From Phoronis australis (Eukaryota; Animalia; Phoronida), in the NCBI GenBank assembly GCA_002633005.1, contig NMRA01001015.1, positions 1 through 64,000 of the forward strand: a DNA stretch of 64,000 nt, in the 5' to 3' direction. A program made the translations under genes and the position numbers. Of this stretch, positions 3,001-63,213 are shown in pieces. The notes under the pieces were generated by a model, which saw nothing but the letters and a program-made list of their open reading frames with translations, made no database searches and was not told the origin of the DNA. How positions within the stretch are numbered: position 1 is the first letter of the stretch; every line of letters begins with the position of its first letter.

Positions 3001-5026
3001 GGAGAGGAGTTTGAAAGAAACACAAAAAATCTGGTTAACACATTTGAAACCGAACTTCAGCAATACCAAAAGTCGATGGAAGGCAAAGCGGTGATGTCTG
3101 GAATTGCAGACTCTAGTCTTCTGCTCTATTTTGGTGCCAAACAGGCTTACACCAGCTTAAAGACGGCCGGAAAGATTTCATCTCCCAAAATGTTGAAAAC
3201 CATTAAATTTCCTAAGACAGGTCTGACGAGCTTGGCAAAACCAAAAGTTTTCACGAAGATATCGTCTTCACTGACCACAGTTAAAAACTTCTTCAAGAAA
3301 CCCAGCGTGGCCAAGTTCGCCAGCAAGGCCGCCAGTGGTGGAATGGTCCTCGGGAGTCTGGTCGGTTTGGGAGTCACGTTGGCTGTGGACATTTCTCAAG
3401 CAAAGAAGATGAGAGATTCTCTGCGCAACACGCGCGACGAGATGAAACGTACCCTTAATGAGCTGAGGAATGAAATCAACCGCGAGAAGACAACTGAGCG
3501 AGACCTAGCCGCTGCATTCCAAGACATCAGGAAGAAGCACATTGAGCTGGTTCAGATAATCAACCCTTCCTTGAAGAACAAACTCAGCACCAGCGCAGGA
3601 TCTAACTCCGCTCAACTGTACAATGTAAGTACCAAAATGTTGGGGGTCCAGCTTAAATGGCGGCATGGCATGAAATTCCCTGTTAGTATAGGATTGGTTA
3701 CCATGTCTTCCTTTTCAACACTTTCGTCGGTGTTTGACACTTCTCATCTAAATATTCAACACCTCTTTCCATGCTTACTACATATTACACATCAACTTTT
3801 GGCACGGCGCAACTGACACGGAGCAAATTGATCGGTACGTGTCAAGCGTCCGTTTACACACACAACTCACTATCTTTGGCAAGACGGAAATTGAATACTG
3901 GAGAATGGATCACACGTGCGCAGGTTTACAAATGACGGGAGTTGAAGAGACAGAGAACCTGTATTTAGGTCATTACACAAGCGCAGTTGAGATGATCCTT
4001 TCCGTCTTGCCCCAGTTTCGCGTTTAGACACATAATTGACGCGGAGGAGGATGTTCTTGCGCAAATTGCTCTACCTCAAAAACGGGTGGCAAAGTTGCCA
4101 CCGCGGTGTCAATTTTCTCCAGTTCAGTCCCGTTTACTCACGTACTTGGCTGGAACAACGCGTTCCGTGTCAGCTGATCCGTGTCAACTTTTGTAGTGTA
4201 AATGGCGCTATGGTCTCGCTGTCAGTCATGAATATTCTCCACATATTTCTGTATTCGCTCATCGCTCCGCTACAAAGCGCTGACCTGCAACACTTCCGTT
4301 CTCAGTAGATGTTTTCAACTGACTTTGCTTTAATTCTAAACTAAGGGGACCGCGAATGAATTAGAAAACTAATAAACGTCATGACTGAAGCGATTCTCGA
4401 ATACTGTTGATGGGAGAGTTCGCGTACTTCGCCGGCACCTCCCCTTGCTACGGGCCTTTGAGGGAATTGCAACAGTTTACCTTAAAAGCTCACGTCACGT
4501 TGCAAATCATTTAACCTGTTTTAAGGTGTACCCGTGGCAAAAGCTTTTCAGTGCCAATTCAAATGAAGTTCCTCAATGAAACGTTCCTTGTTTTGCAAGT
4601 TGTTGCGTTTTCACCTAAGTTGTGGTATCAAAATCAGTGCCTTTCCATAAAACCTCTTTCCTTTGTGGCACAAACGGTCGATCCAACTGTGTACTTCTTC
4701 AATGGCCTATTTCTTTCAACCAACATGAAACATCGTTCGGTTTCCTTACAATGTATGCGTCTGTCACATTCTAGTACCAAGTCCAGGCTTTGGCTGTGTT
4801 CAGAAGACTCAACGCTGAGCTTACTAAGATGGAAATCAATTTCTCAGTTATCGAGGAGGTTACAGCCGGTGTAGAGATGGGAGATGATTTGAACCGCATT
4901 CGAACCACTATCCAACGAAAAGGACTGGGATCTTTCAACGAAGGGGAGATCTTGAACATCATTGCTGAACAGTTCCCCAGCAAAACCTCCTACAAGGGAA
5001 AAGACCTTAAAAGATATAGAGGTTAA
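1..5026 (+). CDS. Secreted cationic coiled-coil protein, tandem copy 1 (5'-partial; exons <1-16, 1943-2080, 2744-3624, 4775-5026)
   Basis: GT-AG bounded exons with compatible phases (1,1,0) join into one open frame. Exon lengths 138/881/252 are identical to copy 2. Function not recognised. Confidence 0.85.
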
Positions 5027-6832: not shown

Positions 6833-9800
6833 ATGAAGGTTTCCTTGATAGTAACGCTGTTGGTGGTGGCTCTTGCCCTGTCTACGACAGGTAAGGACGA
6901 GAGATGTCCACCATTTGCCTCGGCAATATAGAAGCCATTTTGCAGAAAAATCCAAACTAAAAGCAAAGCAGTACGTCACGAAATACAAGTGTGCAGATAT
7001 CATCTTTCCGAACTAAGCACCACTATCAATTCAGTTTCCGCACCATTCAAATTTTTTTACAAAAAGACTGCATCCCTTTCTCGATATACTTCATCAAGAT
7101 CCGAACTATAAACCAATAAATGGTGTTGCGAAGAAATTTCTTGCCTTCTCAACACAGGGTGCCGTTTTGGCCCTGTACAATGTTGGTTCTGATTTTCCAG
7201 TGTTCGGAAAGTAACATCCTCATGTTCTGCTACGTTCAAGATCTGGACACTTTTGACTCAGATTACTTAAAGCTGTCGTATTGGTCATTCAGATGAGAAG
7301 GGAGTCCTGGGTTTGCAAGGAACAGACAGTTTGTTTTTGTTGAGAACTTGCTTAAGGAGCCCGCCTGACCTCAAGCGCTAATGAACAGTATGTTCTTTCT
7401 AAGTTCTGATATACAGTGTATATAACTTGACCGAGGAACAACTTGAGACTATTTTCCTTTGGCTAACGGTAAGTGATTTATATAAATAAAAATTGTGGTT
7501 TTGTAAGCATAGATATAAACTCCACATCAAAGACTGCAAGCATCGTGCACCAGCACGTGCCATACTGGTATTTTTGTTGAACGATTGTTCCGAATGTAGC
7601 GCTACGTTACTCATGTGGCTTGCTTCTTCTAAAAGAGGCACTGTACATTTCTTGCTGAGTTTTCCATGCAAAACTTCACACAACACTAGATTTGCCGCCT
7701 TTCTTCCATTGTGACGAAACGTCTATCAACAAGTTGAAAAGCTACGAGTCGTTCCACTTTAAAAGCTTTACGTGACCAAGGGAACTTTATTTTGTCTCAT
7801 ATGTTTGACCCCTTCACTTCCACCGAAAAATTGCTCAAAACTCATAAAAATGTGGCAGAAACGCACTACTGACAATTTTCAGTCCAAACCCACCACTTTC
7901 GAATGCATATAAGAGCCAACACCAGATTCTGAAAGAGAATTTACCTAAAAGTTCCCGAAATGTGGTCCCAAAGTACTGCCATTCAATATTTTTTGCAAAT
8001 GAGGGTTGTTTGAGCGCCAATTAAAATCGCAGCAGGTTCCGTGGCCGAAGAGCGACAATGCTACAGGGACCGCCATTCCGAAAAAGTGTATCTATAGTCA
8101 AACTAGTTGACTTTTCTCATTCAAACCATGTTCAAATACAATTCGACTTAAGCCAGATACAAAGAACTTACTTGTAATGCATATCTAACTGCCGTGCGAA
8201 GCCTGACCTGTTCCACATAATTTATACAAAAAGTGCCAATTCAGTGGCCGCGGTTACAGTCTAACTGTACAATGCTACCAAAGGCATTATCAATGTCGAA
8301 TTCAAATGAATGCAGTCTCTCGTTGGCTCATTGTAAGCACTAAGACGTAACAGCATGCAAAATTCGGTAATATCGTTTTTTGAAATATAAGGAAGTGCGA
8401 TGGCGTACGAGAATTGTGGAATGTGCACTAGTGAAAAGTGAGCTGCCACGGCACGTACATGTATTAGTGGAGAGAGATGTTCTTGGTTTGCGTGAAGACT
8501 GCGCCTTTGTCCTATAGGAAGCTGTGAAACATATCAGATAACTGAGTTTGCTGAGTCGAAACCCAGATCCGTACGCGAATTCTATTCGTGCGTTGCCCGA
8601 CTGAAATGAACCCAAGCGCACTTTCGGCAAAACGTTACCGTAGCTACAGGCAGTTTTTTGACACAGTATCACTAGTACAGCGAGCGGTAATAATTCCCCA
8701 CAGCACGTTGTGTAATGTACATTTAGCTATACAGAACAAACCATGTATTTCAGATGCTGGATTGATCCGACTAGCCATACGGGGAATTAAGATTGGCGTG
8801 AAGGCAATTGTTGGCGCAGTAACTGGCGGTGGAACCGCTACAGTCGTTACAACGGCTGTCCTCACAGCTGCCGATCTGGCACTGAATTTAGGTAATATTT
8901 CATAGAAGAAATTTTCATAACTGATACGTTCGCATGGGCGGCGCAGCACTGAAAAAAGTGGGGGCTAAAGACACCCCAGCCCCCCCCCCTGTGGTGCACT
9001 GCCTATAGACCATGTGCGGCGTAGCACAGGAAAAAGTGGGTGGGCTATAGCACCCCAGCCCCCTTTGGTGCGCCACCCATGCTTAGTGACTTAATATCAT
9101 TGTAGAATTTCGATTTTCTGTCTTTTACTGGGAGGACGTTTTATGTCATTGATGAATTCAATCGAGTCTTTGAATAGCATGTAGTCGGTCAATCAATCCT
9201 GAACCTTGTTTGGGCGGATGTACTGGCTGCATAGGGTGTAGCACCTAAAGAGAACAGGGCGATCTACTTCAGACGTGCACGTGACCTACTATAAGCAGAC
9301 TACCAAAGATATTCAGTTGAATACCTGAAAGATCGCTTCACGGTTGTTTCAAGTTTCACGCATTTTCGCACTGAAAGGAACAGTAGGCAAGCTTAAGTGT
9401 TTGTGGTCGTTTTTATACTAACACAATAGAAAAGAATCCTTTGAGGGTACGTCTATCTATGATTTAACTTTGAAGTTCTATGTTTGGTTCTTCAATTAAG
9501 TCCCCCCATCCCGTCTTACCAACTGCGAAGCCAAAACTTCAGGAAAGTTTTCGCAGAAATTTCCGTTAGCATCATGACGTATTTGTCATAGATGTGGATG
9601 AACAGGTTCAGCTCAGCGAAGCAAATCCCTTTCAGGTAACGTGTTGTCCAAAGGATGCATGTACGAAAAAGAAATTTGTTCGCTGACACCAGAGATCGAG
9701 AACTTAGAGAAGCAGATGGTACCATTGTATAACCAACTGACGCTGCTGGATCAAAAGAACACCAAGACGTATAACGACCTGACGAAAAATCTGGAGAAAC

Positions 9801-11521
9801 ACAACGAGCTTGCGACAGAGGCCAACAAAATGCAAGCCCTCGTCGTGTCCATTATTCAGAAGTTGGGTGACCCCGCCAAATTAGATCGTCTCGGACAGGA
9901 GTTTGAAAGAAACACCAAAAATATGGTTAATACATTTAAAACCGAACTTCAGCAATACCAAAAGTCGATGGAAGGCAAAGCGGTGATGTCTGGAATTGCA
10001 GACTCTAGTCTTTTGCTCTACTTTGGTGCCAAACAGGCTTACACCAGCTTAAAGACGGCCGGAAAGATTTCATCTCCCAAAATGTTGAAAACCATTAAAT
10101 TTCCTAAGACAGGTCTGACGAGCTTGGCAAAACCAAAAGTTATCACGAAGATATCGTCTTCACTGACCACAGTTAAAAACTTCTTCAAGAAACCCAGCGT
10201 GGCCAAGTTCGCCAGCAAGGCCGCCAGTGGTGGAATGGTCCTCGGGAGTCTGGTCGGTTTGGGAGTCACGTTGGCTGTGGACATTTCTCAAGCAAAGAAG
10301 ATGAAAAATTCTCTGCGCAACACGCGCGACGAGATGAAACGTACCCTTAATGAGCTGAGGAATGAAATCAACCGCGAGAAGACAACTGAGCGAGACCTAG
10401 CCACTGCATTCCAAGACATCAGGAAGAAGCACATAGAGCTGGTTCAGATCATCAACCCTTCCTTGAAGAACAAACTCAGCACCAGCGCAGGATCTAACTC
10501 CGCTCAACTGTACAATGTAAGTACATGTTGAATCCAGTATTTTCTGTTGGGGCTCCAACTTAAATACGGCATGGCAAGCCTGAAATTCCCTGTTAGAAAG
10601 TCTTAAGAATTGGTTACCATATCTTCCTTGTCAACACTTCCGTCGGTGTTCGACACTTCTCCTCTAAATATTTAACATCGCTTGCCATGTCTACTTCATG
10701 TTACACACCTTATAGTCTCGCTATCATGAATATTCTCCACACATTTCTGTATTCGTTCATTATTTCGCAACAACGCGCTGACCTGCAACACTTCCGTTCT
10801 CAGTAGATGTTTTCAGCTGACTTTGCTTTGTGTATTTTATTTTAAACTAAGGGGACAGTGACTGAATTAAACGCCATGACTGAAGCAATTCTCAAATACT
10901 GTTGATGGGAGCGTTCACGTACTTCGCCGGCCCCTCCCCTTGCTGCGGGCCTGTGAGGGAATTGCAACAGTTTACCTTCAAACCTCACGTCGCATTGAAA
11001 ATCATTTAACCTGTTTCTGGGCGTACTACGTGGCACAAGCTTTTCAACGCCAATTCAAATGAAGCTACTCAATGAAGCGTTTCTAGTTTTGCAAGTTATT
11101 GCGTGTTCATCGAAGTTGCGGTATCAAAATCAGTGCCTTTTCATAAAACCTCTTTCCTTTGTGGCGTAGACGCTCGATCCAACTGTGTGCTTCTTCAATG
11201 GTCTATTTTTATAATCAAACGTGAAAGGTCGTTCAGTTTCCTTAAAAGAATGCTTTTGTCACTTTCTAGTACCAAGTCCAGGCTTTGGCTGTGTTCAGAA
11301 GACTCAACGCTGAGCTTACTAAGATGGAAATCAATTTCTCAGTCATCGAGGAGGTTACAGCCGGTGTAGAGATGGGAGATGATTTGAACCGCATTCGAAC
11401 CACTATCCAGCGAAAGGGACTGGGATCTTTCAACGAAGGGGAGATCTTGAACATCATTGCTGAACAGTTCCCTAGCAAAACTTCCTACAAGGGAAAAGAC
11501 CTTAAAAGATATAGAGGGTAA
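6833..11521 (+). CDS. Secreted cationic coiled-coil protein, tandem copy 2, 442 aa (exons 6833-6890, 8754-8891, 9636-10516, 11270-11521); possible alpha-helical pore-forming/cytolytic protein
   Basis: Signal peptide MKVSLIVTLLVVALALSTTDA, then GLIRLAIRGIKIGVKAIVGAV..., heptad-rich helices and hydrophobic segments AVMSGIADSSLLLYFGA and GGMVLGSLVGLGVTLAVDI. Spliced length 1329 nt in one frame. Gene structure is seen directly; function is inference. Confidence 0.85.
8933..9081. mobile_element. MITE (CATGGGCGGCGCA...TGCGCCACCCATG family) in intron of copy 2
   Basis: Terminal inverted repeats; absent from the equivalent intron of copy 1 (~2115); related to the element at 35920-36063. Confidence 0.7.
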
Positions 11522-36063: not shown

Positions 36064-36519
36064 TCGTACTCAGACCGAGGTCAAGTATCATTACTTTCAT
36101 TTTATAAATCAACGGGCAACATCGAGTGAATTTACATACTCATCACTGTTTCAATTTCAATCACTGCTTTACAAAATACAGTTTTGAATCACTTGTGTAG
36201 TTGACTTAAGAAGTTACCTAGCTGTTTCCTTTGCAAATACCAAAAGTTTGAGATTGCAGTAGAAGTAATCAGAGACCAAACATTTTTCATTTGAAGTGAT
36301 CCTCTAAATTGCAAAAACACGTTCATTCCAACAGTAGCTGGTAACTGGTATTTATCCGAGACTGAAACACGACTCATTGTGAGTGGGACGTGGGCGCCTG
36401 TGACTGACCGATAAGGCTACTCAGTGAATTTGAATTGAAAACTGCCGCCAAGTAATTATTCGCAGGATACGTGTTTTAACAACAATTAGTCTTACCAGTC
36501 CACTAACGTCCTGTTGTAA

Positions 36520-39230
36520 CTCCTGTCAGAGACCGCCAGTCGCATTTTCAAAATCCAGGTCGCATTCATAACTCGTTGATTCCCTACGTGTCCGCTAGTG
36601 GGTATTTAATTTTCTTCGGGAAGTTTGTTTACACCGGCGTTTTCTAATTGGCTGGTCGAATGCTCAACAGGTAGCGCTTTACGTAAACAAACTAGCATGA
36701 CTGATAGAGGAAGAGTAAGTGTAGAATTGTGGTCTGTTGTACAGGCAAATCGGTTCTTAAAATTCATGTTCAAGAAATGTGATTCAGAAAGCTGTGGTTG
36801 TGCTTTTTCGGAGTACATTTTTTTACTGTCGCTGACTTTCGTTTTTGTTGCTGTCCTGTGTTCACAGAGTATAAATAACACACGGTTTAAATCGGCCAGT
36901 TGTGTGTTCACTTTGTACCTGGCAGGTGCTTTTAGTCGAGCACGCGGCTATTAAACATTACTGCAGAATCGAAATATCTGCTGTCACGCCACTTGCATGA
37001 CAAACATCGTTCATAGTCGGCCATTTCTTTCTTTGTTGTGAAGCTACAAACCAATGACTGCTGAGGTTACATCAACCAGTGACAAAACGCATGCTGCTGA
37101 TGCGTGTCCTCTACCTCCTAGCGGAAACACAGGGAACCAGCGAGGCGTTCATAAATGCTAGGTCACAAAATTTTCCCAGCATTTTTACGTTCCAAAATTA
37201 TTTTTTAGATTTTCGAGAAAATGTATAGATTACGATCTTACCTGCGGCGTTAAATACGCACACATTTCAGGTCGCAAAATTCAGTTCTCACATGCAGGTA
37301 CAGCGTTACTTCTTCAAGACCGCAGCGCAAGTTGCTGAAGTGAAAGTTGAATCAGTGCTATCTAACCGACACGTCCATTCGAGTAGCTAAGTTGTAATGT
37401 GAAAAGGGGGGAAATATTTGATGAAAAACTGTCATCGACTGATCCGTGAAACGTTACCCTAGCCCAATGATGTATTCGGATACACGGGAACAATTCACTG
37501 ATCAGCCAGGCCACAACAAAAATGTGGGGTTCATGTTGTTTACTTACTCAACAATTAGTTTTCCATGAAATAAAATCCGAGAAATAATTTCCGACTCTGT
37601 GCGGGTTTTCATCTAAACAAAGACCCAGGACTTGACCTACCTGCGGTGTATTTAGATTTGTTACGGGATTCCCCCCGACATTAGCGAATCCCTGAGACTG
37701 TTTTTATTTCTTTTATTGTACAACCCGGTGGTGAAAGAAGTCCGTGAGAGTGGACGANACCTTTTTGCCCAATTCGCCAAATTGGGGGGCTCGTTCGAGC
37801 AAAAGGTCCACATAGTTGGGAATTCGAGCCCCCCCCCCATATTGAAGGCTGGGTGCGCGCATGTACTTTATCTATGTTCAGTTGAGAGTAGAGTTTTGTT
37901 CCGAAGGTATGAATGTAACGGAATAAAGACTGTCAACAATGAAGTGTCGTGCGTTTAATCAATTATTTAGGATTGTCAATGTTCTCTTTCCATTTGTAGC
38001 TTTGGAGTGGTGGGCACGAATTAGTTCACGCGCTTGAATAGCCGGAGTAGGCCAGCACTATCCAGATGTTTAGAGATGACGTATCATGGCAGTAGATGAC
38101 GCAATTTGGACCCAGAAATAAGAATAGAAATGCCGTCACACTGAGTCCAAAACGTCAAAATGACGTCACGCTAAACATTCCAATACCGGCGCTGGCCAAC
38201 AGCATATGACAGACGACTCGTAATGTCGCGCACGTAGCCCCAGAAACAAGTAAAGGGGTTGGGAATTTACTGGCGACTCAAAAACATAGGCGGATTTTGG
38301 GGGGGGGGCAGGAGGCCCAGGCACTCCCCCCCCTTGAAAGAGCTTGAAGAGTAAGGAAATATTGAGATCAGCAACTAGGACCGGTAGCGGATAAGGGGGG
38401 GGGGGACCTCAGACCTCGGGGATTGTGTTCTCGCTTTTTTTAGTACATCGAAGGATATTCCGAACAGAAGGTTCACATCCCCGGCCCCGCAACCCTTCGG
38501 GCCTGTGCACATTACAATAGCGCTTTGCCCATTTCCCGAGGCAACATGTTGCCCCCCCCCTTATGGTGTCTTAGATCCGACACTGAAAAACCACTTTGCT
38601 GAAAGTAAAGACGTGACCGTCGTTTGGCGATTATTAGGGTTGCCATTTTCACGTTTGCTATACTTGCGATGACAGACAAGACGTACGTTTCGAAGCNCTT
38701 AGTACGATCGTCTGCCGGGACCGCTTGCGCGCCAACAACGAGACCGATCAGTGCCGCAGTGCGATATGAAAGATATTGTCGGGGATATTTCGTAATAAGG
38801 GTTTCTTACGTGAAAAATAAATATGTTTTCCTGAACAAAGTATAGTACGTTGTTCGTGCATTAATAGAAATACCACTGTTTTGTGACGTTTTATCACGTG
38901 TTCTGCCGTGCCTGGTCCGAAAGTTTGTTCGGTTCATCCCAAACTGTTAGCCAATGTCGTCAAAGGTTGATTCTGCACTGTCCAATGTTCACGCGACGTG
39001 CAAGTCATCGGGAGTGCTGTTCCCGGTTAGTGCTTTTTTAACTTGATTTCGCAACAACCAAATAACGGTCAGATTTAAAGGAGTGGCTTATGTTTGCTAG
39101 CTATGAAGCTATCCGCTCAGAAGTGTAAAAACTCAGCTTGCATGTTTACGTTAGAAATTCCAGCGGTTGCATTTTGCGACTTGATACGAACTGGCAAAAA
39201 TCTTAGCTCGCACATCCAAATATCAGGTTC
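36520..39230 (-). mobile_element. Old, interrupted inverted copy of the 61008-63213 non-autonomous DNA transposon
   Basis: 37140-37280 is the reverse complement of ~63000-63135 and 38600-39225 of ~61045-61685. Younger MITEs are nested inside. Boundaries approximate. Confidence 0.6.
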
Positions 39231-46453: not shown

Positions 46454-47496
46454 TGTCGTGAACGTGTATTCTCTCGTTGTGTGGCGTCATGTGGTGTTGT
46501 CTTTGTTCGTCTCTGTGTGTGTGGTGTTGACATAGTGAGCCAGTGATAGGTCACGTGACTCTGGGCACGAGGGGGAATCGGGGAGTCTATGAAAGGGTGT
46601 GGACCTAGATAGACGATCTGGAGAGTGTAACTAGAAGCGCTCTTACAAGTGTGACACTGATGGCAAGCCCGGACAAGAAGTTGGGTAAGTTGGCTGTCTC
46701 TGAGGAATTATAGGCCGCGTTACTATAATTGGCGTAGTCGCCGGCAGGATTCAAGAGTGCCAACTTATAAACCGTGTGTGAGTTTTTCGCGCCGGTACCC
46801 TTCCGGGAGTGGGAGGGTAATTTGTATACCAAGTGCGTTTTCGCGTGTAGCTAGCCTATATATTACTGTCGTTACTGGTTATTTGTTGTAATCTTGTTGT
46901 GAGTAAATACTGCATGTCCATTTGATTCCGTGCGCGGTTCTCAGTTCCTATTTGATATTGGTCCTAGGAAATATTAAACTTGCGGGTTTGATATTAGTTG
47001 ATAATTATGGCTGCCGGGAAGGTGTCTATTAATTTCTGTCCCGCGGGAGAGTTGTTAGAAATTCCAGGGGTTTCCGAGGAAATTGCTAAAGATATTTTGA
47101 AGTTCCGGTCATCCACTCAAGTATTACCGGAAAATGTTAATTATATTAATTCAGGGTGGAAAGTCACTAAGGCGGTCCGTAATACTATTGATTTCAGCGC
47201 GAGTCCAGAGGACGAATTTCACAAAATTATCGAGGTATGTGAGGAATTCGAGAAACATGCTTTTAAGCCTGCAAAAACAAAGAGTGCAGGTCATACTCCC
47301 TCTTCGGCAAAGATGGCCGCAAAATTCCCGGGAAGCACAAATGCAAGTTTGGAGTGTAAACATGATATCAGATCACATGCTCCCAGTAAGCTAGTTTTTT
47401 CGGGAAAAAGGGGAACATGGGAGGACTTTCAATGGAAGTTCCAGAGTTTGGCACGTGATTATTTTTGGCCGACACATAAGTGTCGCACTGAGTTGG
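46454..47496 (+). mobile_element. Second, truncated copy of the Gypsy element: 5' LTR (46454-46727), PBS, leader and gag 5' part
   Basis: Same LTR/PBS/gag sequence as 48171-49210 but a different 5' flank (ACAT) and a diverged LTR. Intact gag ATG at 47007. Ends at the n join 47497. Confidence 0.9.
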
Positions 47497-48170: not shown

Positions 48171-48446
48171 TGTCGTGAACGTGTATTCTCTCGTTGTGTG
48201 GCGTCATGTGGTGTTGTCTTTGTTTGTCTCTGTGTGTGTGGTGTTGACATAGTGAGCCAGTGATAGGTCACGTGACTCTGGGCACGAGGGGAAAAATCGG
48301 GGAGTCTATGAGAGGGTGTGGTGAAAGATAGACGCTCTGGATAGTGTAACTAGAGGCGCTCTCAAAAGTGTGACACTGATGGCAAGTCCGGACAAGAAGT
48401 TAGGTAAGTTGGCTGTATCTGATGAATTATAGACAGCGTTACTATA
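48171..48446 (+). repeat. 5' LTR
   Basis: TGTCGTGAAC...GTTACTATA; direct repeat of 57622-57897 (about 8 mismatches by eye). Confidence 0.95.
48379..48403 (+). CDS. Putative coding mini-exon in the LTR (MASPDKKL) spliced to ORF3
   Basis: ATG GCA AGT CCG GAC AAG AAG TTA G|GTAAGT: consensus donor, phase 1, in frame with the acceptor at 55251. Confidence 0.65.
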
Positions 48447-48448
48447 AT

Positions 48449-48468
48449 TGGCGTAGTCGGCAGGATTC
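48449..48468 (+). promoter_or_regulatory. Primer-binding site, tRNA-Ser
   Basis: TGGCGTAGTCGGCAGGATTC, 2 nt after the LTR, is complementary to the 3' end of eukaryotic tRNA-Ser (GAATCCTGCCGACTACGCCA). Confidence 0.88.
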
Positions 48469-48722
48469 AAGAGCACCAACTTATAAACCGTGTGTGAGTT
48501 TTTCGCGCCGGTACCCTCCCGGGAGTGGGAGGGTAATTTGTATACCAAGTGCGTTTTCTCGTGTAGCCAGCCTATATATTACTGTCGTTACTGGTTATTT
48601 GTTGTAATCTTGTAGTGAGTAAATACTGCATGTCCATTTGATTCCGTGCGCGGTTCTCAGTTCCTATTTGATATTGGTCCTAGGAAATATTAAACTTGCG
48701 GGTTTGATATTAGTTGACAATT

Positions 48723-50136
48723 ATGGCTGCCGGAAAAGTGTCTATTAATTTGTCCCGCGGGAGAGTTGTTAGAAATTCCAGGGGTTTCCGAGGAAATTGC
48801 TAAAGATATTTTGAAGTTCCGGTCATCCACTCAAGTATTACCGGAAAATGTTAATTATATTAATTCAGGGTGGAAAGTCACTAAGGCGGTCCGTAATACT
48901 ATTGATTTCAGCGCGAGTCCAGAGGACGAATTTCACAAAATTATCGAGGTATGTGAGGAATTCGAGAAACATGCTTTTAAGCCTGCAAAAACAAAGAGTG
49001 CAGGTCATACTCCCTCTTCGGCAAAGATGGCCGCAAAATTCCCGGGAAGCACAAATGCAAGTTTGGAGTGTAAACATGATATCAGATCACATGCTCCCAG
49101 TAAGCTAGTTTTTTCGGGAAAAAGGGGAACATGGGAGGACTTTCAATGGAAGTTCCAGAGTTTGGCACGTGATTACTTTTGGCCGACACATAAGTGTCGC
49201 ACTGAGTTGGGGTTGTGCCTTGAGGGGGATGCAGCTCGGTGGTTTTCTAATTATATAAAAGAATATCCGGGGGCAGAGTTTGATGACATCATCGAGATAA
49301 TGTCTAATAGATTTGGATCCGAGGTGGAGAGTATTGAGGTACATCAGCTTCGTTTCCATTCAGCATTTCAAGAGAGGGATGAGTCTCTTGAACAGTGGGC
49401 AGATCGCCTTACTAGTTTGTTCCTCAAGGCTTTTCCGGACCCCAGGCCTTCGGATAAATCACAGTCAGTACTGAGGTTTTGTCTGGGAATGCGCGATAAA
49501 GATGTGGCCCAATTCACAATTAATAATAAACCAGCGACTGTTGTTGACGCATTGACATCGACTCGTTGGTTTTCGACCACTAAAAACCTAATGCATGCAT
49601 CGCCCAGGTCAGTGACATTTCGTCGCGAATCTTATGCCGACGATGTATTCGAGAATGTCGACGTGAGACAGGTTAATCGTAAGCCTAGTCTTAAATTTAC
49701 CCCGCGAGATACTATTGAGTCGCGGTTGGACGCCCTTGAGGGGAAATTCGCGTCCCTTGAATCATCTAGTCTTGAAATGCAATCGGATATTGTTTCCCTG
49801 AAATCAGACAATTCTCAAATTCACAAGAAAATAGACCGCATGAAGACTGAAATGAATAGCAATTTCGGTGACATAACAAATAACTTCAATAAACTATTTT
49901 CAATACTACAAACTCAGTCGCCGAGACGACCGCAGGAGTCGAGGGAACAGCGGTTATCGCCGAATTCTCCGAGGTCTGACATTCGTCAGCGAAATTCACC
50001 AGGTTCTTCACCTAAATGTCCATATACACCGAGGTGTTTTAAGTGTAATCAACTGGGGCATTATCAGAGTAATTGTCCATCGACGTCGGCACGTAGGGCT
50101 AGTGTGGAAAGCAATGAGGGTGATTTAAATGCCTAA
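48723..50136 (+). CDS. gag: Gag with N-terminal HhH motif, capsid-like region, coiled coil and CCHC zinc knuckle (2-nt deletion near 48750 relative to the upstream copy)
   Basis: LEGDAARWF, QERDESLEQWADRL, CFKCNQLGHYQSNC. ATG context matches the intact copy at 47007. Confidence 0.9.
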
Positions 50137-50185
50137 GGACTGGGCGATCGGGTCTTACCCCAGTCCGTAGTAAGTGCCAAGACCC
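50124..50185 (+). promoter_or_regulatory. -1 programmed ribosomal frameshift signal (slippery site + H-type pseudoknot)
   Basis: In-phase T TTA AAT at 50124-50130 and a 6-nt spacer. Stem 1 GGACTGGG(50137-44)/CCCAGTCC(50159-66); stem 2 GGGTCTT(50150-56)/AAGACCC(50179-85). The -1 frame is open into the protease ORF. Confidence 0.8.
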
Positions 50186-53100
50186 TCCTGATGTTGCGAA
50201 ATTAGTTGGCCTCGTGGGGTGCATCAAGAAATTTGTTAAAAAGCTTAGTCGGGACTCCAATTCATCGGAAACGGATTGTTCCTTTGAGAGAAAAACTTCT
50301 GCCGATTATCATAAATCTGTTTCAGAGTTAAGTAGTCCTACAAATTCTAACGTAACGGAGAGTGTATCTTCAGACAAGATGTGTGGGGAAACGGTTCCGG
50401 TTATTGTTGAGGAGGTGACGAACAGTTATGAGATTGTGATAGATTCATTACACATGAATTCACAAAGTAACTCTCCATCTGTGTCGGGAGAGCTGGTTCC
50501 ATCCGGCTCTGTTCCGGTCAAGATGTCAGTCGAGGCTGATAGTTTCTTCGATTCCCTAGAGACTGTTGGAGTAAAGAAGACTGCAACGGGTAATATGTAT
50601 TATATACCGATTAGAATTAATGGCACTGTGGTTGATGCCATTATTGATTGCGGAGCTGACAGCACCATAATCTCGCACCGGTTGTACAATTTGTTAGACA
50701 ACGTTGCTTTTTCACATAACATTAATGTACAAACGGCTGGAGAAGATATGGCTATGCTAGGTTTTCGAACGCAACCAGTAACTCTCACGTTTCAGCATCA
50801 GACCTGTGATGTTTCATTAGTCGTGGCTAATATTAACGATGAGTGTTTATTAGGTCTGGATGTTATGAAACGGCTAAATGCAGTTATTAATATGAAAAAA
50901 GATTGCATCACGTTGGATAACAAAACTTCAGAAATGAAGTATGGTTTCCCTGCGAAGCTATTACCTACTGTAGTACTGGCTAGGTCTGTTAGTATACCTC
51001 CAAATACTGTGAAACGGGTTAAGTGTGTAAAAAACCCAAAATTTCAGTCAACAGTTTTGGTTGAGGCCGATTTGATGAATCTGGATCCGCGATTATCAGT
51101 ACCTCGCGCTTTGTATGATTTTGAGGATGAGCCAGCTTTGATGATTTTCAACACTTCGGAGCATCAAGTTAGGCTGGTGGCTGGGTCATCACTGGGTTCA
51201 GTACAAAATGTGGATGAATGGACTGAGGTTCATTTGAATTCCGTTACTCCCTTGGATGAAGATGATGTTTCGGCTTGAAAAGTTGTTGATCAGTCAGATG
51301 TCAATAAGTATCAGATTAGCTTACCATCCAAACTTCAGGGCCTTTTTGACAAATCTAAAGTTTCACTTTCGGATGACGAGTCGTCAAAATTACATACATC
51401 GATTACTTTCTGATTATACCGATGTATTTGCAGCCGATGATATGGATTTGGGCAATTTTACAGCCGTAGAGCATGTAATTGATACGGGAGATGCTCAACC
51501 AATAAAAATGGCTATGCGGCGTACTCCGAGTTGTTTCATTTCGGAGGAGGAGGGTCATCTAGACAAAATGCTCAAGGCTGGCGTGATTACTCCGTCTACG
51601 AGTGAGTGGGCTGCGGCTCCGGTTTTAATTAGAAAGAAAACTGACGGTTCAGTCCGGTATTGCATCGACTACAGGAAGCTAAATCGGGTAACCAAAAAGG
51701 ACTCCTGGCCTTTACCATTGATAGACGAGTGCATTGATTTACTTGCGGGTAATGTGTGGTTTAGCAAATTAGATGCTAATTCGGCGTACTGGCAAATCAA
51801 AATACGCGAAGAAGACCGTAAGAAAACGGCTTTCATAACTAAATATGGCCTTTTCGACTTCAAGTCAATGCCTTTTGGGCTCTGTGGGGCTCCCTCAACC
51901 TTTTCACGGGCAATGAGTTTAGTTCTGCGGGGGCTAAACTGGCACACAGTTCTTGCTTTTCTCGACGACATTTTGGTCTTGGGTTCTAGTTTTGACGTGC
52001 ATTTAAACAACCTGCGGGAGGTTTTTGATCGTTTTAGGAAATATCAAATGAGATTGAAACCCAAGAAATGTTCATTGTTTCAAAAACGCGTTGATTTCCT
52101 AGGACGATGGGTGGGCCCTGAGGGGTTAGAAATGGGTCAAGATAATATTGACAAGGTAAAAACCTGGCCTGTTCCAAGAAGTAAAAAACAGTGTCAGAGT
52201 TTTCTTGGTTTCGTAAATTATCATCGTCTTTTTATCAGGGATTTTGCTCGCATTGCGATGCCACTTTACGAAGTCACTGGGTCCTCTCCCTTTGCGTGGG
52301 TGGAGAAGCAGCAATTAGCTTTTGAAGAGCTTAAGGTGGCTTTAACATCGCCACCCGTGCTGTCGTTACCCAATAATTATGATGAATTTATCCTCGATTG
52401 TGACGCTTCTGATCTTGCGATTGGTGCTTGTTTGTCACAAGTTCAGAATGGCGAGGAAAAGGTTATCTCGTATTCGAGTTTTGCGTTGGTGGATGAGCAA
52501 AAACGGTATTGCATGACTAGGAAGGAATTATTGGCTGTGGTCCGTTTTACTCATTAATATCGACATTATTTGCTGGGTCGGAATTTCCGCGTGCGGACGG
52601 ATCATAACAGCTTAACATGGTTGTTGAATTTTAAATCTTCAAGTGGTCAGATAGCGCGTTGGATTCTGCAGCTGCAACAATTTCCGGGTATGAAGATAGA
52701 GTATCGGCCGGGTATAAAGCATATTAATGCAGATGCACTTTCCCGTATTTCTGTAGATATTTGAAGCAACTATAAACTGGGAGTTTCTCCAGAACTGCTT
52801 CCCTGCGGGGGTTGTGCAAAATGTCAAAAAGCTCATAATGACTGGTATAGTTTTTCACAAAAAGTTGATGATTCAACATCTCTTGGTAGCGTGGTGGTCA
52901 CAAAAGTAGATAAATGTATTGGTACAGGGAGACAGGTAATTACGGCTTCTGTTGGAAGTCAAGAGTCGGATTTGTCTCGGTATATACCTGATGATCTAGC
53001 AGAGCAGGAATTTGGATTGGCTGTGGTTAATCCAAATCTTTCAAATTCGAGTGATAGTGTTTTTGTGGAATCGGAATTTTGCGTTGTCAACAACAACTCG

Positions 53101-55207
53101 ACCAGCTCAAACTCCTGCGGGTATCTTAATGAAGCTGAGTTGCCAATTAAACAAAAAGCTGATGTGGATTTGACTTTTGTTTTCAACTGGTTAAAGGAAC
53201 AGNATAGTGTTTTTGTGGAATCGGAATTTTGCGTTGTCAACAACAACTCGACCAGCTCAAACTCCTGCGGGTATCTTAATGAAGCTGAGTTGCCAACTAA
53301 ACAAAAAAAAGCTGATGTGGATTTGACTTCTGTTTTCAACTAGTTAAAGGAACAGGTAGTTCCTACAGAGCACGAATTGTTCCTATCTAGTCCGTCAGCA
53401 AAGTTTTACTGGATAAACAAAGATCGGTTTTATATTCAAGGTGATGTATTGTTCTGAAAATCATACCATCGGCGGCTCATCAGGGTATTTTCCGGACTAA
53501 GTCAAAAATAAGGTTAAAATATTTCTGGTATGGTTTGACGAAAGATGTCAAACAATTCATAGGTTCCTGTGGGGCCTGCAATCAGAACAAGCAGGGCAGT
53601 AGACGTGGTCGATTTCCGATGATTCGTTATCATGCTGGTGCGCCGATGGGACGGGTTCATGTATTTTCTGGGGCCATTACCTGTGACAAACCGCGGTAAT
53701 GAACATGTTTTAATGATCGTTGATCAGTTCACCAAATGGGTCGAGTGCATTCCATTACCTTCCCAAACGGCTGAGGTCACGGCCCATGCGGCGGTCAACG
53801 AGTTCTTCACACGGTTCGGATATCCGTTTCATATTTTTTCAGATCAGGGAAGGAATTTCGATAGCAAACTTTTTAAGTCACTGTGCGACCTCCTACACAT
53901 AAATAAGTCAAGAACAACTCCATACGAATGGACAGGTAGAGCGATTTAATCGCACGCTCATGGACACGGTGAGATCTCACGTGAGGGATTATCAAGACGA
54001 CTGGGATATGTTTATTCCGCAAATTGCTGGGGCGATTCGCTCATCAGTCAACCGACATACTGGNGCCTGCAATCAGAACAAGCAGGGCAGTAGACGTGGT
54101 CGATTTCCGATGATTCGTTATCATGCTGGTGCGCCGATGGAACGGGTTCATGTGGATTTTCTGGGGCTATTACCTGTGACAAACCGCGGTAATGAACATG
54201 TTTTAATGATCGTTGATCAGTTCACCAAATGGGTCGAGTGCATTCCGTTACCTTCCCAAACGGCCGAGGTCACGGCCCATGCGGCGGTCAACGAGTTCTT
54301 CACACGGTTCGGATATCCGTTTCATATTTTTTCAGATCAGGGAAGGAATTTCGACAGCAAACTTTTTAAGTCACTGTGCGACCTCCTGCACATAAATAAG
54401 TCAAGAACAACTCCATACCGTCCGTCTGCGAATGGACAGGTAGAGCGATTTAATCACACGCTCATGGACGCGGTGAGATGTTACGTGAGTGATTATCAGG
54501 ACGACTGGGATATGTTTATTCCGCAAATTGCTGGGGCGATTCGCTCATCAGTCAACCGACATACTGGTTTCTCTCCAAATATGGTGATGTTGGGACGAGA
54601 AACAAATCAGCCGATAGATCTTATATTTCCGGTGGTCACGTCAGTTAATAATCAACCATATGGTGATTATGTTGGGAGACTTCAAGGGGCAATAAGCAAG
54701 GCTCATGAAACGGCGCGTCAATTTCTTCAAACTAGTCAATCTTTGATGAAACGGGACTATGATCTTTCAGTGTTTAAGCGCGTGTTTCATCTGGGTGATC
54801 TTGTGTATATCTTTGACTCGGCAACCGTGAAAGGAAAATGTAAAAAATTATCTCCTCCGTGGAAGGGGCCGGGCATTATTACGGAAGTCTTAACTCCAGC
54901 GTTGTACCGGGTAAGAGTTAAGAATTCAGTTTCGGTAGTTCATCATGACAGAATAAAATTATGTACAACGCAATATACAGAATTGCCTGATTGGTTAAAA
55001 AGAGTCATTTCTGCTGGAAATGTCATCAACACCAATACCGGGAATAGGGATCCGGAACTTTTTTGCATTTGTCGCAAGCCCGATCACGGAGGGCTCATGA
55101 TTCAGTGCGACTCTTGTGATGACTGGCTTCATGGGGAATGTGTTGATATTACCGCTACTGATGCAAGGGAAATTGACACTTATTGGTGTCCTCGGTGTAA
55201 GCCATAA
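50130..55207 (+). pseudogene. pol: Pol polyprotein (protease, RT, RNase H, integrase, PHD), disrupted in this assembly
   Basis: PR AIIDCGADSTII; RT YCIDYRKLN, MPFGL, AFLDDILV; RH DCDASD, TRKELLAV, RTDHNSL; IN VHVDFLG, FSDQGRNF, GQVERFN, WKGP. Frameshifts near 51270-51390 and 52760, stop at 52555, duplicated blocks at n 53203 and n 54064. Confidence 0.93.
53960..55207 (+). CDS. Integrase core + C-terminal PHD finger
   Basis: DDE motifs as above; C4HC3 pattern LFCICRKPDHGGLMIQCDSCDDWLHGECVDIT...YWCPRC at ~55058-55200. Confidence 0.9.
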   Translation: MDTVRSHVRDYQDDWDMFIPQIAGAIRSSVNRHTXACNQNKQGSRRGRFPMIRYHAGAPMERVHVDFLGLLPVTNRGNEHVLMIVDQFTKWVECIPLPSQTAEVTAHAAVNEFFTRFGYPFHIFSDQGRNFDSKLFKSLCDLLHINKSRTTPYRPSANGQVERFNHTLMDAVRCYVSDYQDDWDMFIPQIAGAIRSSVNRHTGFSPNMVMLGRETNQPIDLIFPVVTSVNNQPYGDYVGRLQGAISKAHETARQFLQTSQSLMKRDYDLSVFKRVFHLGDLVYIFDSATVKGKCKKLSPPWKGPGIITEVLTPALYRVRVKNSVSVVHHDRIKLCTTQYTELPDWLKRVISAGNVINTNTGNRDPELFCICRKPDHGGLMIQCDSCDDWLHGECVDITATDAREIDTYWCPRCKP

Positions 55208-55251
55208 CATCATTATGATGTAATAATTACATAACCATGTTTTTGTTGTAG

Positions 55252-56087
55252 ATGTCCAGTTCGCCTGTTTAGATGTTCGTTTGCGAACGAACCCAGACCT
55301 TCCAATAGCGACCTTCAACGAAGGTGAGTCCGGGGCTGTTGAGGTAGTCCCTATGGATGCAGAGTCAGTAGTGGGTAAGTCAACTGAATGCCAAGGTGAA
55401 GTGGATTGTACAGTTGCGGCTGTAGACGAAACACAGTCATCGATTAAAACGCCAGTTAGACCTGCGGGAATCTCGGGGTCATCTAGTCAGTGTTCGGTAA
55501 GTTCTGCGGGTCTTCCATCTCCCTCCTTTTCGTGCCCGTTATGTCCTTTTACGGGGTCGGAGGCCGTGTTTCGGGCACACGCCCTATTACATCTTCCGAA
55601 AATATTCAATATATCATCTATTCACATGCTCGCGTTTCCGGGGTTACAGCGTCGTCGCGCTTGGGCGATTCTTCGCCTGTTTTCTTACATAGAGGGCAGG
55701 GAATTGGTGTCATACAGCGATTTGATGGATATGGGGGGGTTGATCGTGCGCAGTTTGCCATGTATACCATCTGTGTTGTTGGTTGACGAGGTGTCGATGT
55801 TCTTAATATGCCGTGTGATGGGATGGCCGATACCATCTCGTTTTATCGCACCGGATGGTCGCTTAGAGAATCCAGCATGTGTGTTCCTCTTGTATATTAT
55901 TTTGGGGATGATGGCACGCGTGTCGGAGGCCCTTCGCTCTGAGTGGATCCGTTGGTGTGATGAAGAGTCCGCATCTACCGAAATGCAGGAAGTAACATTT
56001 ATTCCTTTAGCGGCGCCACTGCATCAGACATCTACTGGGGTAGACGTTGCGTCGACTCCTACGAACGGACCGGTGAATGCACCATAA
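55252..56087 (+). CDS. ORF3 N-terminal part: Ser-rich linker, C2H2-like finger, helical domain of unknown function
   Basis: CPLC-x11-H-x3-H (CPLCPFTGSEAVFRAHALLH). Same frame as the TatD ORF, separated only by one TAA at 56085-56087. Polypyrimidine acceptor TTTTTGTTGTAG ends at 55251. Confidence 0.7.
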
Positions 56088-56099
56088 GCAACGGGGCCT

Positions 56100-57087
56100 G
56101 TGACTACATCGTTCACCACTTTTGCTCAGGTAGTTGCAGAGGGTTCGTCTAGGCCTACTGCGATTGGAACGACTGTTGCGGCCGAGTCTATTTCAACTCT
56201 GCGCAAAGTAAAAGCGGATCCTCAGGCTTTGGACTCGCATTTCCACATTGATAGGTTATCTGTGGCCCATCGTGAGAAAACGGGCGTACGGACAGTGGAC
56301 AGATGGCTGTCAGTACCAGAACTCCTGGCGGCAGATATGTGCAGGCAACCGACGGTGCCAGTGACCCTCTGTGGGGGGATCATGGTTTTTTGCGATGCAC
56401 ATGACTTTCGCGTTGACCTGGGTGCCTATTTGAAACAGCTTCCTACGGGATGGAAGGCAGTCGTAGGCATCCATCCTAAACAGCTCTCCAAATTGGATTT
56501 CCGTGCGTGGGAAGTTATGTTGGGGTTGCTGTCAGAACCAAAGGTAGCAGGGCTTGGGGAAGTCGGATTGGAACAAGGTAGGGACGAGGTATGGCAGGCG
56601 CGTGCTTTAGAAGATTTGATAATTCATTTTTGTCGGCTGGAAAAGAAAAAAACTGAATATCGTAGGAAGGTGCTAGTGATTCACCTGCGAGGGGCCAAGC
56701 ATGATGTTCATTATGATTGGGGTTTTGCTACACTCCGTGAGATTTTGCGGCGTCATGCTCCGCGGAGTATTCGTATGCACTTATACACCTTTGTTGGAAA
56801 TACAAATGTCGTGCGCGACTTCTGTGAGGAATTTCCTTCGTGTTATTTTGGCTTTTCAGGTTTGGTATGCAGGTACAACCGCTGGCAGGTTGCAGCGTTA
56901 CGCGCGGTTCCTCTGCAGCGGTTGTTGTTGGAAACCGATTCCCCTCACCTTCCGGTAAATACTAAACCTAATTACCCTCAGTTTATAGGGGAGGTCGCGG
57001 AAGTTGTGGCAAAGCTAAGGGGGGGTGTCCACTAAGGTGGTTCTGGACGAGAGCGTTCGTAACGGACGAAGGTTATACCGATTATAG
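56100..57087 (+). CDS. tatD: TatD-family metal-dependent DNase domain (ORF3 C-terminal part)
   Basis: DSHFH, VGIHP, GLGEVGLE, VLVIHLR, YFGFSG, LLLETDSPHL in TatD order. Removing one G from the run at ~57019-57025 restores the typical ending RGVSTKVVLDESVRNGRRLYRL* (stop 57085-57087). Confidence 0.9.
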
Positions 57088-57608
57088 AGGGGCGTGGGGG
57101 TGGTATATGAGATATTATAGAAATAATAGTTTTTTTCCCTTTTCTATATATTTTTTTTGTATATGCCTCTTTATTTTACATTTAGGGGCATTTCCGTCTC
57201 GTCTGTTCGGACATCTTGTGGATTATATTAGTTGTTTCTTTTTTGTTTTTTGTTTTTTTTTATGTATTAAGTTCTTACTTGAGAGTAAGGGGATGGGTTT
57301 TTGGTGTTTTTTTTTGGTTTTTCCTTTTCGTTGAGTGCCCTTTTCTTTTTAGAGTCAATAGGTTTTGTTTTTAGTCATTGTTCTTCAGGCCACTATGTTT
57401 AGGATAATTTTCTTTTGGGAGGGACGGTTTAGTTGTGAAGTGCTACTAACGTCACATCAAATGTTTTTTTTTTTTCATTAAGTTATTTTATTTTTTCTTT
57501 CTTTCTGCGAAACTAATTGATGTTTCTTTTTGTTACATTTGGTACGACTGTTGGTCTTCTAACATTTGTTTGGGGATATTAGGAATTAAAGTTAGGCATG
57601 TTCTTTTT

Positions 57609-57621
57609 AGGAAGGGGGGAG
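57609..57621 (+). promoter_or_regulatory. Polypurine tract
   Basis: AGGAAGGGGGGAG immediately before the 3' LTR. Confidence 0.9.
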
Positions 57622-57897
57622 TGTCGTGAACGAGTATTCTCTCGTTGTGTGGCGTCATGTGGTGTTGTCTTTGTTCGTCTCTGTGTGTGTGGTGTTGACA
57701 TAGTGAGCCAGTGATAGGTCACGTGACTCTGGGCACGAGGGGAAAAATCGGGGAGTCTATGAGAAGGTGTGGTGAAAGATAGACGCTCTGGAGAGTGAAA
57801 CTAGAGGCGCTCTCAAAAGTGTGACACTGATGGCAAGTCCGGACAAGAAGTTAGGTAAGTTGGCTGTATCTGATGAATTATAGGCCACGTTACTATA
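57622..57897 (+). repeat. 3' LTR
   Basis: Direct repeat of 48171-48446, followed by the GGAT TSD. Confidence 0.95.
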
Positions 57898-61007: not shown

Positions 61008-63213
61008 CAGGGCTCGACATAACGAGCTGCAGGTCGCATTTGCGACCTGAAATTTGGAAATGCGAGCTGAGATTTTTGTCAGCTCGTATCAAGTCGCAAA
61101 ATGCGACCTGGAATTTCCAACGAATGCGAGCTGAGTTTTTACACTTCTCAACAGATATCTGGCACATACAAAGCAGCTCTTGTTAATCCGACCGTTATTT
61201 GGTCGTTGCCAAATCCAAGTTCAAAACAACACTAACGAGAACAGCCCTCCCGATGACTTGTAAGCAAGTCGCGTGAACATGGGATATGCAGAATCGATCT
61301 TCGACGCGTTTCATTGGCTAACACTTTCGGCCACTTTTGTAAATTCCCGGATTCGCCGAAGAAAGTTTCGGGCCACTGCTTAACACGTGATAAAACTTCA
61401 CAAAACAACGGTGTTTCTATTAATTCTTAAGCGATCAACTTACCAAACTTTGTGGTGGGCAAAAATGTTTAGTTTTTCATATAAGATGTCCTTATTACAT
61501 GTACCAAATATCCACGACAAAATCCCTGATATCGCACTGCGGCACCGTCAGTTAGCGCGCAAGCGGTCCCGGCAGACAATCGTGACTTAGACTGAGATGT
61601 GCTTCTCCTTTTAATCGTATTAAGACAGCCAAAGTGAAAATTACAACCTTATTAATCGCCAAACGACGGTCACGTCTTTACTTTCAGTTGCCAAGAAATT
61701 CTCAAACCCCCTTACTTGTTTCTGGGGCTACGTGCGCGAAATATGATTTGTCTTTCACACGTACGTTGCCAACGTAAAGTGTAGGCCTACTCCAGCGATG
61801 AGCATGTGCGTGAACTCACGCGTGGGCACCACTTCAAAGAACAGCGACAGCCCTAAATGAAAGAGTATGTCGGCTTGGCTCTGGTTTATTTGAAAATAAA
61901 CTCAGATTCCCAGCGGTTATAAAAGACCCGATGTACCGGGACCGATATACATTGTAACCCCGAGAACTGACGTTTTCCTGTTCCGATGTTTCCCGAGGTC
62001 TATGTTCTGTAAATCCTGTATTCTATGCCCGTAGCCAGTTATTGCAACTAAACTGGCACTAGATGCGAAATTGTGGTTCAAGTTAGCGAACTTTTCATTC
62101 TTCTCTTTATACCCCCCGCCAACTTTTCGCTCCCCAAACCACCGTCGCCGTAAAATGTTCAGACTCACCTATAGAAACAACCTTGTTCCGGCTGAAGCGG
62201 ACAGTTAAAAACAAAATCGTTCCGGGTGGCTAAAAAGGGTACAATGTAGGTGGTTACGATATCCAGAAGTCACCCCTACGAGATGGAGTTTGCCTCGCAA
62301 AATCGTATTATTATAACGTTTCTTACCATTGCAGCATTTTAATATCTTATTACCGCAAACACTGAGGTTAACGACTATACTCACGCACAAGCTTACCCCC
62401 TACCTTTAAAGTGTTTCATAATTAGCGCTCACTGATCTATTAAAAGTCCCCCCTTAAATTTTGAGAATTTCCAGTGAAGCGCCCACAGTTCAAGCTAGCG
62501 CCCATCATAGCGTACTACAAACGACCGCGTGTGATTTAAAATTGTCACGCAGCTTATATGGTGTGTCTCTTTCATTTTACACAACTTCAGTTTTCATAAA
62601 CGTCTTTTCACAATATGTAAAAACCAAATCCCGGCTTTGTTTTATACCTCGGAAAGAAAGTTAACACTAGTGACTTGCGTGTCGTTTTGTGACTGACCTA
62701 TTTTTCCCGTACTTGGAAGGTATTGCGGAGCAAACTCGCCATTACCCGAGTTAGTTTGAATCGTTAACGACTTTGATGACAGCCAGTAGCAGGCCAGATC
62801 TAAAAATATCCCGGATACTTTTTCAAGGGACATTTTCTCCCTTTTCACATCGCAAATTTAGCTACTCGAATGCAAAAGTCAGTTAGAGAGCACTGATCAT
62901 TCAACTTTCACGTCGGCAACTTGCCTTGCGCTCTAGAGTCTTTCAATGGAGGTCGTGAAGAACAGTAAGGCCGTAACCTACATGAATGAAGTCAATATTG
63001 AGATCCGAAATTTGTGAGTATTTAACGCTGCAGGTAAGAACATAATCTAAACATTTTCTCGATGATCTAAAAAATCTATTTTGGCGCGTAAAAATGGCGG
63101 AAAAATTTTGCGACCTGGCATTTAGGAATGCGAGCTGGATTTTGAAAATGCGACCTGGGATTTTGGCTAGGTCGCAAAATGCGACCTGGCGATTTTAATA
63201 GCGTCGAGCCCTG
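61008..63213. mobile_element. 2.2-kb non-autonomous DNA transposon (hAT-like termini, 5-bp TSD)
   Basis: Perfect 11-bp TIR CAGGGCTCGAC/GTCGAGCCCTG, TAACC TSD, subterminal TGCGACCTG/CAGGTCGCA arrays, no transposase ORF. An identical left end at 58064-58137 is cut by an n join. Confidence 0.85.

Follow-up and report, generated by a model that had tools for sequence, protein, structure and literature searches.

In retroviruses and errantiviruses, env is translated from a subgenomic mRNA in which a donor near the 5′ end is joined to an acceptor just behind pol, and the upstream exon provides the first codons. In the LTR retrotransposons Juno and Vesta of bdelloid rotifers, this slot behind pol holds an enzymatic ORF3, a DEDDy exonuclease or a GDSL esterase with intact catalytic residues, which is described as typically expressed from spliced messages and for which the source shows neither activity nor role (PMC5408684). 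The enzymes most similar to the protein described here are Group II (HxH) TatD proteins such as TATDN2, TATDN3, YcfH, and YjjV. According to one study, enzymes of this group are two-metal nucleases with 3′–5′ exonuclease and AP endonuclease activity, and replacement of His174 by Ala in TATDN1 lowers AP activity 2-fold and leaves exonuclease activity unchanged (PMC10085689). Human TATDN2, a member of the HxH group, acts on hairpin RNA, which it degrades, and on R-loops, from which it removes the RNA strand through two Glu and one Asp that match the GEVG and ETD motifs discussed below (PMC10711561).

The analyzed window, a 64,000-nucleotide stretch of Phoronis australis contig NMRA01001015.1, contains a 9.7-kb Ty3/Gypsy LTR retrotransposon (48171–57897). 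Its third gene, ORF3, combines a zinc-finger/helical domain with a TatD domain. The element has the following features:

48171..48446, + strand: 5′ LTR, 276 nt, TG...TA; target site duplication (TSD) GGAT precedes
48379..48403, + strand: LTR exon, likely first coding exon of ORF3 (ATG, seven codons, and one base); GT donor at 48404
48449..48468, + strand: primer-binding site (PBS), which we take to be tRNA-Ser-like
48718..50136, + strand: gag, capsid-like region and CCHC knuckle
50124..55207, + strand: pol, protease, RT, RNase H, and integrase with a C-terminal PHD finger
55232..55251, + strand: pyrimidine tract and AG acceptor, joined to the LTR in RNA data
55252..56084, + strand: ORF3, 5′ part; linker, zinc-finger/helical domain (~55521–55964), linker
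56085..56087, + strand: stop codon TAA, private to the window copy
56088..57087, + strand: ORF3, 3′ part; TatD domain of the HxH group, with Tyr at 56784 and a frameshift at 57019–57025
57609..57621, + strand: polypurine tract (PPT)
57622..57897, + strand: 3′ LTR; GGAT next to its downstream end

The Ty3/Gypsy assignment is based on the two LTRs with their TSD, the PBS, the PPT, and the order of gag followed by protease, RT, RNase H, and integrase in Pfam matches. The first-pass annotation of this DNA had called the nuclease element-borne, and the position of ORF3 behind gag-pol and between the LTRs bears this out. The LTRs are identical at 268 of 276 bases, and GGAT is found at both flanks. 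In this copy, gag is frameshifted close to its start and pol is disrupted by stop codons and frameshifts as well as by two N-linked duplications; no dUTPase was seen in pol. Beyond the LTR ends, reads and contigs run on into a number of distinct flanks, which indicates that the element family is multicopy.

The window contains further repeated sequences. A partial second copy of the element (46454–47496; LTR, leader, and gag start) terminates at an N; its LTR exon has two synonymous differences from that of the main copy and is closer to the junction contig of sequencing run X5 described below. This copy is either a tandem insertion or an assembly artefact. In pol, 53054–53355 and 53570–54567 are tandem duplications, each with an N at its center, and an X3 contig omits the first; both are likely scaffolding artefacts. 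A 33-nt piece of gag (49561–49593) also occurs in a different expressed sequence, seen in runs X5, X6, and X8, which probably represents a related family. Outside the element, two coiled-coil ORF copies with weak Pfam matches (2749–3816 and 9641–10531) lie in a 6.5–6.9-kb tandem duplication, and 36500–39230 and 61045–63150 hold diverged inverted copies of a ~2-kb repeat.

Related elements share the arrangement of the third gene. A scan of metagenome contigs with a TatD profile gave 80 loci, among which L001 alone held retroelement genes, namely gag, a 1415-codon pol ending in a PHD finger, and a 712-codon single-frame ORF3. An RT-based scan, which is blind to TatD, yielded three loci: L088 and L089, which contain a zinc-finger and TatD gene directly behind pol (809 unbroken codons and, after one stop upstream of the zinc domain, 781 codons, respectively), and L090, a distant 2.6-kb fragment (RT identity 38%) that ends ahead of the ORF3 slot. 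All three loci whose RT is at least 62% identical to that of the window (62–66%) carry such a gene behind pol. Across the four elements, RT sequences are 62–68% and TatD sequences 29–38% identical (five of six pairs computed). The viral contigs searched contained no such element. A helix–hairpin–helix opens gag in all four elements (E 5e-15 to 0.03; above the cut-off in L088 only), at the following positions:

Helix–hairpin–helix of gag (HHH_3): window 47010–47110; L001 8603–8710; L088 566–730; L089 1713–1870

The ends of the L001, L088, and L089 contigs overlap, and all three sequences are circularly permuted. Bacterial MAGs include L088 and L089, and one family protein (P0147) is named as a MAG protein; animal retroelements probably contaminate bacterial MAG bins. 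At 1900–2607 of L090, the distant Gypsy pol runs into a Macro-like domain, as judged by eye.

In the window copy, ORF3 is broken by point lesions. The first-pass annotation had interpreted two neighboring ORFs as one split protein, and its observations were reproduced: the codon starts of the two ORFs, 55251 and 56088, are multiples of three, and a single TAA (56085–56087) separates them; the frame closes at 57035, and the alternative frame entered at the G-run (57019–57025) leads to a TatD-like last helix, which follows the pattern of relatives, and a stop at 57087. The metal-ligand motifs DSHFH (HxH), GEVG, IHLR, and ETDSP are present, and the second single His is a Tyr codon at 56784. Contigs from X1 and X2, two DNA runs of the same species and one sample, differ from the window at all three sites (two of two runs compared), and the frameshift is also absent from a single X7 read and from an X5 contig of depth 66.5. 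The stop is therefore not fixed in all copies, and the lesions are private to this one; the L001 and L088 relatives are single frames, as expected for one protein. The lesions reflect either decay or assembly error, and the DNA runs may derive from an individual other than that of the assembly. The 97% LTR identity is compatible with some decay, and the N-centered duplications point to assembly trouble. Counted arithmetically from the LTR start, ORF3 comprises 619 codons, or ~578 from its first in-frame ATG (55353). It lacks the ~90-residue N-terminal helical part present in L001, and its N-domain is without the His-Trp-Arg motif of the family.

The TatD domain of the window protein matches TatD_DNase (PF01026; E 3.2e-26; 92.7 bits against a cut-off of 27), and YcfH is the best PDB sequence match. 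In the model of the intact L001 protein, the zinc domain stands between an N-terminal helical part and a TatD barrel, with disordered linkers connecting them; Foldseek matched this model, which represents L001 and not the window copy, to TatD structures (E ~1e-11), in line with a TIM-barrel TatD fold. The protein family was defined as the best 150 clusters from a profile of 14 sequences, each cluster below 50% identity, and genomic context is available for four members only. Of the 142 scoreable family proteins, 128 retain all six metal ligands, a count to be read with the selection by score against a motif-bearing profile, which favors the motifs. The HxH His columns are kept in 142/145 and 135/144 proteins, and the column of the window Tyr, which removes this copy from the intact set, is His in 142 of the 149 proteins that cover it. 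The other 14 of the 142 scoreable proteins are without one or more ligands, some without nearly all. A loss of catalytic residues across the family, which had been named as an outcome contrary to the nuclease reading, is thus not what we find.

In a quick, midpoint-rooted tree, which covers 86 of the 233 domains, the family stands apart from all but one of the 30 rows labelled bacterial (29 of 30; SH-aLRT 100); P0094, whose bacterial label is unverified, grouped inside the family. The tree addresses the bacterial side of the phylogenetic comparison proposed earlier and includes no verified TATDN1/2/3 row. The HxH grouping, public names, and likeness of motifs make TATDN2 a candidate source of the ORF3 TatD domain. 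Clusters named among the 30 looked up come from Magallana, Saccostrea, Ostrea, Mya, Lytechinus, and Lingula, with Plakobranchus and Elysia also among the relatives, and are annotated as “TATDN2”, “uncharacterized”, or “mucin-17-like”. One cluster from the clam Mya has 13 near-identical members, whose contigs show 10 or more different lengths, as expected of dispersed copies. Pfam searches of 49 long family members detected a zinc knuckle in P0255 and a sulfatase fusion in P0267, but neither RT nor integrase in any of them. Fusions of pol and ORF3 were not found among proteins of 896–2555 aa, which is weak evidence. With respect to env-type features, no signal or transmembrane segment and no glycoprotein homology were found, and only 7 of 150 family proteins reached a hydrophobicity (KD19) of 1.8.

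The N-terminal part had been described as an added Zn finger. The finger ligands are indeed present: C-x2-C-x11-H-x3-H-L-P at ~55533–55598 corresponds to the invariant Cys/Cys/His/His/Pro of the family, in which the four ligands are kept in 100/101, 97/98, 105/107, and 109/111 covering rows. The finger is, however, one part of a larger zinc-finger/helical domain found throughout the family. A profile of this domain matches the window ORF3 (E 4.5e-19) and 124 of the 150 family proteins (83 of 109 outside the building set), with misses mostly among short fragments, and none of 79 bacterial-type TatD rows. Conservation of the domain equals that of the active site. Its model, built from 43 sequences (pLDDT 93, pTM 0.87), predicts two short strands and a helix carrying the four ligands, with a helical bundle after them. 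Compared with classical C2H2 fingers, the ligands are invariant and two strands and a helix are predicted, but the spacing varies (x11 in the window) and there is no Pfam or PDB match. No finger or other family was assigned by Pfam to the 150-residue domain, Foldseek against PDB gave no match at E 0.001, and the Atlas gave no match of at least 0.9 for the N-domain and no usable match for P0128.

ORF3 had been called intronless, a description that RNA data qualify, with thin support. An X5 contig (depth 22.7; X5 is presumed to be RNA, and RNA runs were picked by species label) contains 19 LTR letters abutting the GTAAGT donor at 48404, followed by 55251–55465, and two X8 reads show the same join of 48403 to 55252; this support, 19–20 letters on the LTR side and two reads, lies below the thresholds of the mapping tool. 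The join is absent from X3 DNA contigs and was not seen in RNA runs X6 and X7. Position 55252, where the stretch examined in the first pass begins, is the first base past the acceptor, which that annotation had not recognized. After the join, the LTR ATG at 48379 is in frame with ORF3, and homology to P0128 begins 27 residues ahead of the first internal ATG. Three of the four elements have a donor-like site 17–45 nt ahead of the PBS by pattern (expected 0.02–0.05 per 60 nt), and a weaker one was spotted by eye in L089; L001, L088, and L089 all combine such a site shortly before the PBS with an acceptor-like site 30–80 nt past pol. L001 and L088 ORF3 possess their own ATG, so an in-frame LTR start may be peculiar to the window subfamily. 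It thus appears that splicing yields a subgenomic RNA for ORF3, with the first codons supplied by the LTR. The layout of donor and acceptor and the start in an upstream exon are those of env mRNAs; the donor here lies inside the LTR, upstream of the PBS, and a putative soluble nuclease takes the place of the membrane glycoprotein. Coverage of the ORF3 body is low (~2x in X8 over 55096–56303; ~1x or none in X6 and X7), and X8 has sense reads on ORF3 and none over most of pol. In X6 (40 reads) and X7 (25 reads), sense reads start at ~55254 and continue from a GTGAGT donor at 55324 into sequence that is not in the window, a chimeric transcript in which this piece of the element perhaps serves as first exon of another gene.

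Taken as a whole, we give an even chance to the reading that this locus is a decayed Gypsy copy encoding a ~620-residue zinc/TatD protein from an LTR-started spliced RNA, likely a nuclease for the element's own intermediates. The LTR-initiated RNA would yield one protein, whose TatD domain would act as a 3′–5′ nuclease on RNA:DNA hybrids or single-stranded by-products of the element, while the zinc domain would bring it to nucleic acid or to the particle or integration complex. Conservation of the metal ligands makes catalytic activity of the ORF3 protein likely, and by analogy with TATDN1 His174 the Tyr at 56784 may not alone abolish it. For its purpose, clearing of own intermediates is plausible at somewhat less than an even chance; we place it ahead of a counter-defence or scaffold role since unrelated 3′–5′ nucleases, among them the rotifer DEDDy enzymes (PMC5408684), occupy this slot repeatedly, a pattern suggestive of a shared need. 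Thin splice support, the ligand-poor family members, low ORF3 coverage, and the N-terminal features missing from the window copy count against this explanation, and the need for another hybrid nuclease is not evident, as pol already has RNase H.

The recurrence argument suits nearly as well a nuclease directed against host defence, which would remove the small RNAs, nascent-RNA hybrids at the insertion, or stray cDNA through which the host silences or senses the element. A separate spliced message would allow this protein to be made apart from gag-pol, as the X8 sense reads on ORF3 may suggest, and pol carries a chromatin-reading PHD finger. TATDN2 acts on R-loops in fish germ cells (PMC12709183), and Rodriguez et al. 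consider that DEDDy ORF3s may have a role linked to silencing (PMC5408684). Read counts are, however, too low to establish expression of ORF3 alone, and we regard this role as possible but rather doubtful. That the protein is chiefly a nucleic-acid-binding scaffold, with cutting secondary or dispensable, would suit a zinc domain conserved as well as the active site and the long frames of P0142 (cluster named Ostrea edulis), P0237, P0206, and P0257, which have lost most ligands; retention of six ligands in the bulk of the family across deep divergence makes it unlikely. The annotation of relatives as “putative deoxyribonuclease TATDN2” could suggest a host TATDN2-like gene captured by chance as a useless passenger. 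This is strongly disfavored and very improbable, given that the four elements, despite their divergent TatD sequences, have the gene in the same slot and on the same strand with the same splice layout, and given the many copies of the Mya member. Least credible, to the point of being nearly negligible, are two separate proteins or programmed readthrough at the TAA: the stop does fall in a flexible interdomain linker, but other copies lack it and relatives have a single frame.

Enzymatic ORF3s are known in kind, and a TatD cargo with a zinc domain is new as far as the open-access literature was searched: no description of TatD-carrying LTR elements with a zinc domain was found there. The likeness to Juno and Vesta lies in an enzyme in the env slot with intact catalytic residues, here apparently also expressed from a spliced message. 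The elements described here differ in their TatD barrel in place of a DEDDy domain, the zinc-finger/helical fusion, a pol in which no dUTPase was seen, the integrase PHD finger, the gag helix–hairpin–helix, and their named hosts, which are molluscs, a sea urchin, and a brachiopod. With Group II TatD enzymes, ORF3 shares the HxH, Glu, two His, and Glu-x-Asp ligands and the TatD fold; unlike these, it is mobile and multicopy, has an extra N-domain, and forms its own branch apart from bacterial-type rows. A published figure of the Hox cluster of the giant squid includes a “putative deoxyribonuclease TATDN2” alongside other genes of transposon-like character (PMC6962438), and this may be the same cargo.

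More speculatively, and with a probability well below even, these elements would form an old, widespread animal Gypsy lineage in which a TATDN2-type R-loop/hybrid nuclease with a zinc domain of new fold, LTR-spliced, serves as a weapon against silencing or sensing, and many “TATDN2-like genes” of molluscs, echinoderms, and brachiopods would be its cargo. The recording of element cargo as host TATDN2 genes is a likely annotation error. The zinc domain offers 150 residues without structural match in PDB by Foldseek. TatD represents a second, structurally unrelated 3′–5′ nuclease family in the env slot of LTR retrotransposons; the recurrence of nucleases there suggests a need that gag-pol leaves unmet, and the role of enzymatic ORF3s becomes approachable through a well-studied enzyme class.
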